From: Eledone cirrhosa
Taxonomy: Eukaryota
Direction: 5' to 3'
NCBI GenBank assembly: GCA_964016885.1
Contig: OZ024745.1
Span: 22,816,001 to 22,880,000 of the forward strand
Length of the DNA stretch: 64,000 nucleotides
Positions within the stretch are counted from its first letter, which is position 1; each line of letters begins with the position of its first letter. A program made the position numbers and the translations under genes. Positions 8,221 through 48,450 of the stretch are shown here, one piece after another. The notes below the pieces were generated by a model that made no database searches, had not been told where the DNA came from, and was given only the letters and a program-made list of their open reading frames with translations.

Positions 8221-8412
8221 GGAACGAGTAGGACCCCGACGGCTGAGCTCAAGCCGTTTCGACGGCTAATTCTGGACTAGAATTAGCCGTCGAAACGGCT
8301 TAAGCTCAGCCGTCGGGGTCCTACTCGTTCCTATTACCCACTCTACTACCCTAAGTATTGAGTACTTTGGTGCGTTATAGTCCACCTGGTTACTTACCAC
8401 ATTTCCTTCGTT
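8221..8412 (+). mobile_element. Palindromic hairpin+tail element in (TA)n, copy 1
   Basis: About 52-bp inverted arms GGAACGAGTAGGACCCCGACGG.../...CCGTCGGGGTCCTACTCGTTCC plus about 80-bp tail ending CCACATTTCCTTCGTT; flanked by TA repeats. Confidence 0.8.
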
Positions 8413-8979
8413 ATATATATATATATATATATATATATATATATATATATGTGTGTGTGTATGTATATATGATATATATATATATGTATGTGTGTGAGTG
8501 TCTCTCTCTCTCTCTCTCTCACTCTCTCTCTCTCTCTCTCTCTCTGTCTCTCTCACTCTCTCTCTCTCTCTCTCACTCTCTCTCTCTCACTCTCTCTCTC
8601 TCTCTCTCTCTCTCTCTGTACTGTATGTGTGTGTGAGTGTCTCTCTCTCTCTCCCTCTCACTCTCTCTCTCTCTCTCTCTCTCACTCTCTCTCTCTCTCT
8701 CTCTCTCTCTCTCTGTCTCTCTCACTCTCTCTCTCTCTCTCTCTCTCTCTCTCTCTCTCTCTCTCTCTCTCTCTCTCTCTCTCTCTCTCTCTCTCTCTCT
8801 GTATGTGTGTGTGAGTATGTGTCTGTCTGTGTGTGTGTATATATATATATATATATATTGCAACTGTTGTTGCTGAAGATGCAGCTGCTGCAATAGTTAA
8901 AAGTAGATTTCTCAAATTTCGCTTTATCATTGGAATTTCCATCTAAACAGGAAAACCTCATTTTCTCGTGTGTACCTGT

Positions 8980-9730
8980 TAATGTCATCATCGTCACCAG
9001 CATCATCATCGTCAGCAACAACACCTCCTTCTCCTCTACCACCTCCTTCTCCTCACCATCACCACCATCATCATCATTATCATCATCACCATCATCATCA
9101 CCATCATCACCATCATCGTCGTCGTCAGTAACAGCAGCAAACAAATTTCTCCTCTACCACCTCCTCATCATCACCATCATCATCATCATCATCAACATCA
9201 AGAATGTCATCAATATCACCATCAACATCATCACAATCATCACCAGCATCATCATCATCATCATCGTCGTTATCATCATCAACATCATCATCATCATCAT
9301 CATCATCATCATTAACATCATCATCAACATCAACATCATCATCATTAACATCATCATCAACATCATCATCACCAGCAACATCAACATCATCATCATCAAC
9401 ATCATCAACATCATCAACATCATTATCATCAACATCATCAACATCATCAATATCATCATCATCATCATCATCATCATCATCATCATCATCATCATCAACA
9501 TCAACATCATCATCATCAACATCATCATCAACATCATCATCATCAACATGATCATCAACATCACCACCATCACCATCATCAACATCATCAACATCATCAT
9601 CCTCAACATCAACATCATCATCAACATCAACATCATCAACATCACCATCATCACCATCATCAACATCACCATCATCAACATCACCATCATCACCATCATC
9701 ATCATCAACATCATCAACATCAACCTAAAC
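8980..9730. repeat. (CAT/CAA/CAC)n low-complexity tract
   Basis: Trinucleotide mosaic producing spurious poly-I/M/S ORFs. Confidence 0.9.
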
Positions 9731-10207
9731 CTATCAACTTCGTCTTTACCAAGATTACCACTAGCAGCTCTTCCATCGTCATTATTGTTGTCATCAATAT
9801 CAGAAACGCCATCAATTCCACCACCATCACCACCATCGTCACTACACCCCCCCCCCTCCACCATTATTACCATTGTTGTTGTTGTTGTTGTTGTTATTAT
9901 TATCATTAATATATGAGGGATGTTTGGTGTTTTATGAATAACTCTGATATCAGAAACTAGAGTAAGAGATTAAATTCTTTGTAATAGGGCGGTAGATGGG
10001 CAGTAACCGTGTAGCGGCTGACAACGTGCTTTATGGCATAGAGTTACGGCCCTTTATGATCTGAGTTCAAATCCTGCCTTACGGGTTTAATAAAATATAT
10101 TACCAGTAATGCACTGGAACAATTTCGTCGACTTTCTACTCCTCCCGCCGACAAAAATAATTGCTATCCTTGTGCCTAAATCATAAATCAGTATGTATGT
10201 ATATAGT

Positions 10208-10425
10208 GAAGGCGTGTGGCAAAGTGGTTAGAGATTTGGATTCACAATCGTGAGGTCGTGAGTTCGATTCCCGGATCGGGCAATGCGTTATGTCCTTGAG
10301 CAAGAAACTTTATTTCACGTTGCTCCTTCTACCTGGAGTTGCAACCGATAGATAGTATTAGCAATTGGAAAGACCAATGGAAACATTGTTTCCTCGGTCC
10401 GATTTGACGAAAGTCGATCATCTGT
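10208..10425 (+). mobile_element. tRNA-derived SINE family B
   Basis: GAAGGCGTGTGGC...GTGGTTAGAG A-box, GAGTTCGATTCC B-box, body CCTTGAGCAAGA..CTTTATTTCACGTTGCTCC; other copies at about 45955-46300 (+), 51072-51205 (+), 58130-58355 (-). Confidence 0.8.
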
Positions 10426-10672
10426 CTATATATATATATATATATATATATATTTGTGTGCCTCACAATGTTCTGAGTTCGAATCACGTCGTATCTATTT
10501 GTGTTGTTGGTTATTTTATTATCATTATTTTTTTTGTTTTGCTTTTTATTTGGTGGGGAGAGGTGATGATAAAATAAATATCAGATTAAGCCGTAGCCTG
10601 CATTTCAACAATTAGTGTCTCCTCCATCAAAGAGTTCCTTAATTTTAAATCAAATCTTCAGATATGTGCAAA

Positions 10673-45415: not shown

Positions 45416-46599
45416 ACAGGATTATAGAAAGATCTTGGCAAGGCTACACGCCAAGAGGTTAGCAGTTGTCGCTGTTTGTGTTGCCAGAGACTCACAAAAC
45501 TATGTGGAACCCCTGCAGATCTACTTACATCAATTCCCGTCTCAAGCGATATATGTTCGAGAAGGTCTTCTCTCGATTTGACTCTCGATGAATCAAAAAT
45601 CAATATATCATTTGTCGAAAACGTCGATTATCATAAAGTTAATCATGGCTATCTGGTAGCTGTCATAGCCAGTTTCAGATTCGACTTCAGAGACGGGAAC
45701 CACAATGACACGAGTGAATGTGTCAATACTCAGCTTGTTCCCATATATCAGACAAAGACAGCTAGATGAGGGCATATTTCTTTTAGTAGCCAATGTGATC
45801 CTGAATCTTGGAGGAACTTCGATTGGCTCTATCTGAATGTTTTCCTGTATCAGGAAGACAGAACACTTTAATTCTATACAATGTATGGAAAATCACATGG
45901 CCTAGTGGCTAGGGGTGTTGGTCTTACAATCATATTGTTATCTGTTTGATCACTTGAAGGTGCATGGCTTAGTGGTTAGAGCATTGGGCTTGCAATCGAA
46001 ATGTTGTGAGTTCAATTCTCGGACCGGGTGATGTGTTGTTTCCTTGAGCAAGACACTTTATTTCACGTTGCTCCAGTTTACTCAGCTGTAGAAATAAGTT
46101 GCGACATCATTAGTAAGAAGCTGTATCGTAGTTTGCCTCTCCCTCGATCAACATCGGTGGCACGGAGAGGGGCTAGACTGGTATGCATGGGTTACTGCTG
46201 GTATTCCACACACTACCTTGTTCTGATTCTTGCCTAGGAAGGGACACTTTCTAGGTGGAAATCCCTTGGTCATTCGTGATCGAAAGGGATCTTTACCATT
46301 TACTCTTTTAAAACTTACTTATATATTATATGTAACCTAAATAAACCTATATAAACCTTTTTTATTATATAGTATGTATAACTGATTATTATACTATGTA
46401 CTGTTTATGAGTATACTATGTATATATCAGTTATCTCTATACTATGTATTGGTGGTGGTAGTGATGGTGGTGGTATGGTGGTGGGCGGGTATGGTGGTGT
46501 GGGTATGGTGGTGGGCGGGTCTGGTGTTGGCGGTGTTGATGGTATGGGGGGTATGGGGGGGTATGGGGGGGGGATGATCTGGTGGTGGGGGCCTGGTGT

Positions 46600-46810
46600 T
46601 AGTGGGTGTCTGGTGTTAGTGGGGGGTCTGGTGGTGGTGATGGTCTGGTGGTGGTGGGGGTCTGGTGGTAGTGGGGGTCTGGTGGTGGTGATGGTCTGGT
46701 GGTGGTGGGGGTCTGGTGGTAGTGGGGGTCTGGTGGTGGTGATGGTCTGGTGGTGGTGGGGGTCTGGTGGTAGTGGGGGACTGGTGGTGGTGATGGTCTG
46801 GTGGTGGTAG
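46600..46810. repeat. 51-bp G-rich minisatellite, about 4 units
   Basis: GTGGTGGTGATGGTCTGGTGGTGGTGGGGGTCTGGTGGTAGTGGGGGTCTG repeated. Confidence 0.85.
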
Positions 46811-47571
46811 AGGAGGAGGTGGTGGTGCTGTTGGTGGTGGTTGTAGTGGTGCTGATGGTGTTGATCTTCTGGTGGTGGTAGAGGTGGTGGTGGTGGTGGT
46901 GGTGGTTGCTGAGGACAGGGAAAAGAAGAAGGAGTGTGTTAGTGATAATATTGTCAAGAGTGATGACATAGTTGGTTTGGAGCAAGGTAGCTAGCATGCC
47001 GTCATTTCTTAACATCGTATTTGTTTTGTTATGATAAAAGAAGACGTGTGTTGATGGTGTTGTTGTGTTGAGAAGGTTGTTGAAAGTACTGATGGTGATG
47101 GTTATTGTGAGATAGATGGTGAGGTGTTGGGGGACTAGAAGGGAGTCCCTTTGACTGACAACAAAGACACAACAGCTGGGAATAAACTTTATTACTCTCA
47201 TACCTCACTGTTACTGATTCCCCTACACGTGTATTGAGGGGTAATGGAGAAATATATGAGTACACACACACACATGCATATACTCGATACACATACACCC
47301 ATGCCCACACGCACACACATACTTATACATTATGTGTGGGTATATATATACATGGATAATTATATATAATGGTTTCTGATTTAGACACAAGGCTACAAAT
47401 TTGGAGGTGAGGATAAAGTCGATTAAATCGACCCCAGTATGTTACTGGTACTTTATTTTATCGACCTCGTTAGGATGAAAGGCAACGTTAACCTCGGCGT
47501 AACTATATGCCACAAATAATTATATATATATATATATATATATATATATATATATATATATATATATATAT

Positions 47572-48248
47572 AAAACATGAGAAGAAAGAGGAATACTGCG
47601 TGGTTGCACATGGGTTATATATTATAAATTAGTCCCTCGTCAGTGATTTGCCAACCATCATTGGTATTTCATCGCAATAAAAGTCATATACCTCAGGTTG
47701 GTGCGAGCAATAACTAAAAAAAGCTATTGGGACAAGTGAATCGCGTAAAGCGAGTGAGACAAGTAAACAACATAGAAGGATAAAAGTAAACCGAAGATAG
47801 TAAAAAAAACAAGCAACATGGTTATCCGGTCAGCATAAGCTGGGTGAATTTCATGAGCGATCAGAATACAGACCGTCCGACGTGAGTGAGATGTGAGCAA
47901 GAAAGGACCCCACTATTAACGAAACGGGAGGAAGTGAGAAGAGGAGAAACAGAGAGTGAGTGAGTGGAAGTGCGAGGAAGAGGTCAGTCGAGAGAAAGTG
48001 TAACTGACAGAGGGGGCGAAAGAAGGTGAGAGAAACAGAGAGAATGGGGGAGCAGTAAGAGAGAAAGAGAGAAACAGACAAACGCAGCCGAGGTAAATAT
48101 GTATAAAAAACATGAGAAGAAAGAGGAATACTGCGTGGTTGCACATGGGTTACATATTATAAAATTAGTCCCTCGTCAGTGATTTGCCAACCATCATTGG
48201 TATTTCATCGCATTAAAAATCATATACCTCAGGTTGGTGCGAGCAATA
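47572..48248. mobile_element. Small element with about 140-bp terminal direct repeats (pLTR/TRIM-like), non-coding
   Basis: 47572-47712 is near-identical to 48107-48248; about 395-bp purine-rich interior; (TA)n on both sides; no clear PBS. Confidence 0.65.
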
Positions 48249-48259
48249 TATATATATAT

Positions 48260-48450
48260 AACGAAGGAAATGTGGTAAGGAACCAGGTGGACCATAACGC
48301 ACCAAAGTACTCAATACTTAGGGTAGTAGAGTGGGTAATAGGAACAAGTAAGACCCCGACGGCTGAGCTCAAGCCGTTTCGACGGCTAATTCAGTACAGA
48401 ATTAGCCGTCGAAACGGCTTGAGCTCAGCCGTCGGGGTCTTACTTGTTCC
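48260..48450 (-). mobile_element. Palindromic hairpin+tail element, copy 7
   Basis: Reverse orientation; arms GGAACAAGTAAGACCCC.../...GGGGTCTTACTTGTTCC. Confidence 0.8.

Follow-up and report, generated by a model that had tools for sequence, protein, structure and literature searches.

Half-hammerhead hairpin repeats of Eledone cirrhosa as probable insertion stubs of a Hydra-clade Penelope-like retrotransposon

A short palindromic repeat recurs in (TA)n tracts of a 64,000-nucleotide stretch of the Eledone cirrhosa genome (contig OZ024745.1, positions 22,816,001 to 22,880,000; the window), and it raises the question of how a sequence comes to be inverted on itself, with half of a hammerhead ribozyme in each arm and a tail at one end only. 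A reading made from the sequence alone (the sequence-only reading) proposed that one arm is templated from the other, either by snap-back priming as in Penelope-like elements (PLEs) or by conversion. The repeats are probably the shortest insertion form, here called stubs, of a Hydra-clade Penelope-like retrotransposon, and their arms are likely two complementary DNAs (cDNAs), one made on each strand of a nicked (TA)n target, with their ends then joined head to head. The architecture itself is not new, being the shortest form of the known PLE insertion that consists of an inverted pseudo-long terminal repeat (pLTR) plus a tail.

Positions within the stubs are counted from +1, the A of AGT[C/A]CAG (AGTCCAG in the 8221 stub) and the inferred start of the RNA. 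Numbers preceded by L denote sampled loci of the 3.0-Gb genome, and arm boundaries in the window were set by BLAST against the pLTR of the full-length copy L155. All seven copies that had been reported lie beside (TA)n, but the hairpin with a one-sided tail is present in only five of them (8221, 26425, 37045, 43307, and 48260, on the minus strand). The ~52-bp hairpin ascribed to the other two is not there: 33108 has a single arm joined straight to the tail, and 35802 consists of one arm by itself. The repeat is real and much too frequent for chance: 8,930 places in the genome match a 32-letter target-plus-arm pattern exactly, and none match its reversed control. Because these are exact matches of one pattern only, the true copy number is higher. 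Each arm reads GAAAC-GGCT-loop-AGCC-GTC, correctly recognized from the start as half of a hammerhead, and the tail-bearing arm of the 8221 stub (8279..8414) combines this 3′ half (GAAA, stem III, GTC, GGGG) with a tail of ~78 nt.

The parent element was reached with a longer-centred copy, L014, which as a query returned relatives whose arm extends inward. These relatives hold, in inward order, CCCC-TTGA[G/T/A]AA, a long stem II, an untranslated region, and the end of a GIY-YIG-like open reading frame (ORF). A protein search of the genome gave 150 scored matches of 47,261 candidates. Twenty 10-kb stretches around long matches (L151-L170), picked as top protein matches, contain a 3.54-kb unit in tandem and inverted arrays, with a tandem spacing of 3.54 kb in L153 and L154 and with inverted partners that have one tail; 17 of the 20 ORF starts in this selected set lead into an unbroken frame of 717-723 amino acids. 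The stub arms are the pLTR end of this unit, whose 717-residue product joins a reverse transcriptase (RT) to a GIY-YIG endonuclease (EN). The suspected link to PLEs is thereby borne out, and longer relatives of both kinds that had been proposed, with a hammerhead core and with a PLE ORF, exist. Long open frames of other retroelement-like sequences also lie beside PLE copies (L158:1-1175, minus strand; L166:3-2273, plus strand).

The 717-residue protein has the RT and EN motifs FDI(253), YRDD(348), VIY(591), and YIG(606). With a single ORF, an RT core and C-terminal GIY-YIG, together with pLTRs, tandem and inverted insertions, and an optional tail, the element is an EN+ PLE. The Hydra clade is defined by RWK, a change of DKG to DKT, a CxCx5C linker, and CxxC and CxH around the end of EN, and its members favour (TA)n for insertion and carry a hammerhead in the pLTR (PMC8557442). 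The corresponding motifs here are RWR(37), a conservative variant of RWK, DKT(117), CNCPDRSIC(572), CNLC(670), and CKH(698); TA junctions stand at both ends of insertions, and the pLTR holds a hammerhead. The clade is also marked by an EN that lacks the CCHH motif; on this point the comparison was by eye, and it showed the EN region to be collinear with the Hydra rows in the supplement of PMC8557442. In the Atlas neighbours at 0.96-0.99, a fraction of members have HTH_animal, GIY-YIG, or RVT_1. A Pfam search of the protein returned no family, and comparison with PDB sequences gave no match under E=1. By its protein motifs, (TA)n target, and hammerhead, the element is placed as a new Hydra-clade family. 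Pieces of it are present in contigs of two organisms, B and C. Contig depth from four runs, summed over the pLTR, goes up near +1 and down after the tail; it is not copy number and is not counted as evidence.

Other kinds of element were considered and rejected. A parvovirus-like rolling-hairpin element, an HUH element, a Helentron, and a Naiad were dropped on finding the C-terminal GIY-YIG ORF. A terminal inverted repeat (TIR) miniature inverted-repeat transposable element (MITE) or foldback DNA transposon does not fit, as the sequence-only reading had also concluded for the MITE. Such elements derive from DDE transposons and have inverted repeats at their two ends with a fixed interior between them; here the tail lies outside the inverted repeat, each copy has a centre built anew, and the parent encodes RT–GIY-YIG. 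Non-LTR retrozymes are tandem units that each contain a complete type I hammerhead (10.64898/2026.07.22.740005), whereas the stubs are single, inverted, and hold the 3′ half of the ribozyme only.

The 5′ half of the hammerhead, described as missing, is indeed absent from short copies, but it has 5,455 exact matches in longer relatives, and the objection that no relative has a hammerhead core falls with them. The complete hammerhead has stems I, II, and III and a U3-A8 core, a type known in Schistosoma PLEs (PMC4209133), and it is predicted to cut at GUC, between +41 and +42. The core reads TTGA[G/T/A]AA, its subfamilies varying mostly at N7 and a minority reading CTGAGAA. A type I hammerhead is the minimum-energy fold of L155:3720-3835, with a stability no better than that of shuffles (z -0.47). 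Among 12 closely related sequences, 92% of hammerhead stem cells are paired, compared with 28-55% when slid. The window has no match in Rfam at the gathering score, and the pLTR, searched at E up to 10, has only one chance match. A second, unrelated hammerhead-like repeat (TTGATGA ... GAAA, stem III, GTC) occurs at L050:4922-5066 (minus strand) and L087:3489-3633 (plus strand).

The target joins the element at +60 in one arm and at ~+140 in the other, and both sites read TAT, as the target does. Only one arm carries the tail because the arms start at these two different points. Most pairs have exactly one tail (22 of 28 that were unselected, 11 of 12 long ones, and 47 of 52 chosen by their tail-less arm), and binomial tests were applied to these counts. 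For the Poseidon PLE in vitro, two internal RT start sites bound the tail, both target strands are extended, and a dimer is predicted (PMC11167929). By analogy, +60 and +140 would be the equivalents of these start sites.

A single cDNA primed at the tail might produce the same layout by snapping back at the 5′ end of the RNA to give a full hairpin, whose second arm an endonuclease would then cut at +60 and join to the target. Mirrored arms and coupled arm lengths are explained equally well in this way, perfect palindromes and 1-base snap-back joins are seen at some centres, and two-tailed full hairpins do occur (L026; 2 of the 28 unselected pairs). Precedents have been proposed in the form of self-priming (PMC3846280) and endonuclease resolution of the tail (PMC8557442). 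However, 10 of 70 paired copies combine a nearly complete tail-less arm with a tail arm that does not overlap it at all, lone tail-less arms end at +1 (35802, L192, L208, L232), and an extra C stands on tail-less arms, with some copies having one on each arm (L280/281, L286/287). Since snap-back fails on these three points, one RNA copied twice with strand displacement is favoured; snap-back priming alone, as first proposed, is insufficient, and the route through a resolved hairpin appears unlikely.

The inner ends of the arms concentrate at +1. Among 91 tail-less arms from 90 loci in chromosome order, collected with a pattern that left out shorter arms, 59 stop at -5 to +8, none at -6 to -18, and 16 at +10 to +28, and 16 run past -19. 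Of 78 unselected tail arms, from which copies near a locus edge had been dropped, 40 begin at -3 to +8, 12 are long, and 26 are shorter. The element has TATTTAAA at -29 and YYAGT at +1, which we take to be TATA-like and Initiator-like, respectively. Transcription of Penelope in D. virilis starts within its pLTR (PMC2377424).

Arms reaching +1 number 24,330 genome-wide by one pattern, and the base after +1 is C in 6,159 and T in 1,038. If the base were templated from -1, it would be A or G in 138 of the 139 long copies and C in none of them. Thirty C ends were sampled; in no case does the upstream sequence follow, and in 16 neither the partner arm nor the flank accounts for the C. Of 69 copies whose arms both end at +1 around a 2-base insert, the first 50 include 26 with C on at least one strand. 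An untemplated 5′ G at an insertion is interpreted as a copy of the RNA cap. Such a base is known at L1 insertions (PMC4729875). The non-templated C at +1 likely marks a capped RNA start inside hammerhead loop II. The tallies on the 32-letter pattern, +1 arms, C ends, 2-base inserts, and both +42 classes described below were made by hand from listed rows.

A second class of ends falls at +42. Both arms end at ~+42 in 24 of the first 50 of 718 micro-palindromes, and CCCC-N0-4-GGGG copies number ~210 in the genome; the first 52 of these comprise 14 with a single A or T, 9 with other non-templated bases, 20 blunt, and 9 templated. The class keeps the one-tail layout in all 13 copies displayed in full, with 2 loci unparsed. 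It emerged only with targeted patterns, and there is no pile-up at +42 among the 78 tail arms (1 at +42, 1 at +44). The ACCAG-type subfamily makes up 31 of 52 micro-palindromes of this class versus 12 of 100 ordinary stubs, an enrichment that may reflect ribozyme activity or merely youth. Ends at +42 on both arms coincide with the predicted ribozyme cut. Earlier work on PLE hammerheads gives no sign of cleavage in vivo (PMC11167929, PMC4209133).

Both end points lie at or in hammerhead helices, and palindromes are prone to deletion. The ends could thus be RT pause sites at RNA structure, or the product of later deletions of the centre, instead of RNA ends. The added base speaks against this, being enriched for C at +1 and for A or T at +42, and so does the behaviour of arms that pass +1, which nearly always pass -19 as well. 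Folds of the RNA from +1 to +141 have no helix boundary at +42, which is a weak point on the same side. Pausing or deletion is an improbable source of the two end points.

In most insertions the two arms share a stopping region, which is +1 to +8, +42, or a point far upstream. In 45 insertions with one arm past the hammerhead 5′ half, the partner is long in 33, past +1 in 4, starting at ~+8 in 2, and short in 6; this count uses length classes only, start-site labels being confounded by a loose motif, and mixed cases were read by eye. Independent RNAs are disfavoured because most partners would then sit at +1. Both arms belong to the same subfamily in 53 of 56 classifiable copies, compared with 27% by chance, and 10 further copies are unclassifiable.

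These observations are consistent with a reaction in which the two strands of a nicked (TA)n target are primed at +60 and +140 on one RNA. The same RNA would be copied twice, the second cDNA displacing the first. Running off the RNA 5′ end at the capped start at +1, in hammerhead loop II, would give 190-bp stubs, and would explain their half-hammerhead and extra C. Running off a ribozyme cut at +42 would give 115-bp stubs, and a read-through tandem RNA without such an end would give long inverted copies. The two cDNAs would be joined head to head, and the centre closed by end-joining through microhomology, short inserts, or local snap-back. The stubs are without the upstream TATA-like box and the hammerhead 5′ half and are probably dead ends, and their breakpoints probably record the RNA start and the ribozyme cut site. 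The evidence leans slightly towards a fuller proposal, in which the stubs record the PLE insertion reaction itself, with two rounds of reverse transcription on one RNA, each beginning at a fixed site of its own and on its own target strand. The promoter would start within the element's own hammerhead, leaving fresh messenger RNA uncuttable and read-through RNA cuttable, and +42 stubs would represent in vivo cleavage by a PLE hammerhead, with the cut RNA still serving as template.

Several observations weigh against reading one twice-copied RNA, its capped start, and its cut site from the stubs. The proposed RNA start at +1 and cut at +42 are placed from genomic end points, and arm ends scatter from -5 to +8. 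The commonest next base is A, in 31 of 69 stopped arms compared with 15 for C (a few duplicated loci included), in 14 of the 30 sampled ends the C could also belong to the partner arm or to the flank, and the CG insert that two copied caps would leave is found in only 5 of the first 50 of the 69 copies with 2-base inserts. At +42, the 20 of 52 joins that are blunt CCCC|GGGG are also obtainable from CG microhomology. Compensatory two-sided stem changes in the hammerhead number 0 among the 12 closely related sequences. Three of the 56 classifiable copies are chimeric, which suggests a second RNA or a template switch in some insertions; one of them is 43307, whose arms mismatch at the subfamily sites +35, +48, and +54 and match at +10. 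Agreement of the arms in subfamily could also partly reflect subfamilies active at different times.

The stubs might instead be a non-autonomous, MITE-like or retrozyme-like family re-amplified through transcription of a few palindromic masters. Among matches to the 48260 query, forty copies are 98-100% identical with nearly the same centre, and non-autonomous PLE derivatives have been described (10.64898/2026.07.22.740005). Yet there are 42 distinct centres in 59 copies, the commonest of which recurs in four subfamily haplotypes, and the stubs are neither equipped with the upstream box and 5′ half nor tandem, unlike retrozymes. Re-amplification is accordingly very unlikely. The centres are rebuilt at each insertion and not inherited, which agrees with the earlier view that the second arm is made during insertion. 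The centres of L214, L274, L209, and L286 contain short templated re-copies of the arm end, which we take to resemble polymerase-theta end-joining scars.

The likeness of the arms was followed in a mirror test of 66 short paired copies, of which 24 were unselected and 42 had been chosen for an exact tail-less arm. Alleles found in at least 5 elements are mirrored in 136 of 185 cases and those in 3-4 elements in 4 of 58, and the mirrored substitutions that had seemed copy-specific are subfamily alleles common to many copies. The counter-proposal that such covarying states are a few inherited subfamilies of a DNA transposon was right about the subfamilies and wrong about the source, which is a PLE. 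The arms are alike because both are copies, made at insertion, of a single source sequence, and each decays separately afterwards. Correction of one arm by the other after insertion, through gene conversion or hairpin repair, is largely refuted and has almost no probability left: arms do differ by fewer mismatches over 53 nt within a copy (2.9) than between copies (5.4), but a mirrored state exists in only 2 of 99 cases for alleles in 1-2 elements, in none of 6 copies for a CpG-type change at +19, and in none of 7 for a change at +58, and the private changes in L005-L030, loci selected for likeness to the query, are confined to one arm.

The seven window copies are listed in Table 1. The subfamily of 37045 has 72-76% identity to the other copies and relatives at L002, L031, and L047.

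Table 1. Stub arms and stubs in the window, with arm extents in element positions
Feature	Position	Strand	Details
Tail-less arm of 8221 stub	8219..8278	-	+60 to +1; BLAST to L155 pLTR; TA junction directly visible
Tail-bearing arm of 8221 stub	8279..8414	+	+6 to ~+141, then (TA)n
Hairpin stub	26421..26615	+	Tail-less arm +61 to +5 (26421-26477); tail arm +6 to +141 (26480-26615)
Non-palindromic stub	33105..33227	+	Tail-less arm +61 to +14 fused directly to tail +69 to +141
Lone tail-less arm	35801..35861	+	+1 to +61, flanked by TA runs
Hairpin stub, older diverged subfamily	37043..37245	+	Tail arm from +1 (37103), preceded by G
Hairpin stub, chimeric	43306..43503	+	Both arms end at +2
Hairpin stub	48258..48453	-	Tail arm +7 to +141 (48392-48258); tail-less arm +1 to +61 (48393-48453)

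Other repeats share the window. A dispersed unclassified repeat lies in direct and inverted copies at 22189-22772, 23189-23774, 25332-25719, 43524-43934, and 14221-14430, and ends at (TA)n or (CATA)n. Just past the 48260 stub is a 120-bp inverted repeat, 97% identical (48594-48942). A 60-bp tandem repeat of 46 copies occupies 4488-7457, with more than 900 codons open in several frames, and on the minus strand it would encode a Thr-rich, mucin-like sequence. An abundant 190-bp family, presumably like a short interspersed element, has at least a dozen copies, including 1013-1195, 7371-7715, 17035-17241, 26193-26382, 55245-55434, and 59701-59900.

How the inverted repeat and tail of PLEs are assembled, and what the hammerhead does in vivo, are stated open questions (PMC8557442, PMC4209133, PMC11167929). 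A literature search, with most subscription papers outside its scope, found no account of the stubs, of PLE end points at a capped start or ribozyme cut, or of twin priming in PLEs; the inverted pLTR with tail is already known, whereas the search turned up no case of stub ends being used to locate where the RNA starts and where its ribozyme cuts, or to establish the one-tail rule. The stubs offer exact positions that can be tested: +1 for the putative RNA start, +41/+42 for the predicted cut, and +60 and ~+140 for the proposed RT starts. If the proposal is true, one rule would account for the way PLEs are truncated as well as for their inverted copy and one-sided tail. The family further shows that a short hairpin repeat present in large numbers, which could pass for a MITE or an unknown repeat, is PLE debris.

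As an element the parent is ordinary, one further Hydra-clade family. It has in common with the Hydra clade (Craig et al. 2021, PMC8557442) the single RT and C-terminal GIY-YIG ORF, the motifs, the pLTR hammerhead, and the (TA)n target. Hydra-1_Obim, a different Hydra-clade family, from Octopus bimaculoides in that work, has 23 of its first 44 residues identical by eye to the element here, a 2.5-kb unit compared with 3.54 kb, and a hammerhead unlike the present one with its U3-A8 core and long stems II and III; the present element has at least 8,930 copies by one exact pattern. Known PLE insertion units contain an inverted 5′-truncated pLTR and an optional 30-40-bp tail (PMC3846280, PMC8557442, PMC2377424). 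They share with the stubs the head-to-head inverted copy, the tail at one end, and partial tandems, but the tail here is ~78 nt and most copies are 115-190-bp stubs with two fixed end points in place of random truncation. The PLE hammerheads of Cervera and de la Peña 2014 (PMC4209133) also have a U3-A8 core within pLTRs, and motif pairs lying 100-700 bp from each other on opposite strands were there attributed to truncated PLEs. Those ribozymes are of a minimal, dimer type, whereas the present one folds as a monomer because of its 6-bp stem III.

The closest experimental parallel is PAc, the Poseidon element of Anolis (Frangieh et al. 2024, PMC11167929), which is alike in its AT-rich targets, two start sites bounding the tail, extension of both strands, and predicted dimer. 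That work reports no RNA-seq reads ending at the hammerhead cut and leaves the inverted copy unexplained (PMC11167929); here, genomic end points lie at the predicted cut, and an insertion tends to use each start site once. L1 twin priming is similar in that both target strands prime cDNA and microhomology joins the ends. It copies different parts of the RNA, whereas both cDNAs here would span the same 60 nt and begin at two fixed sites.

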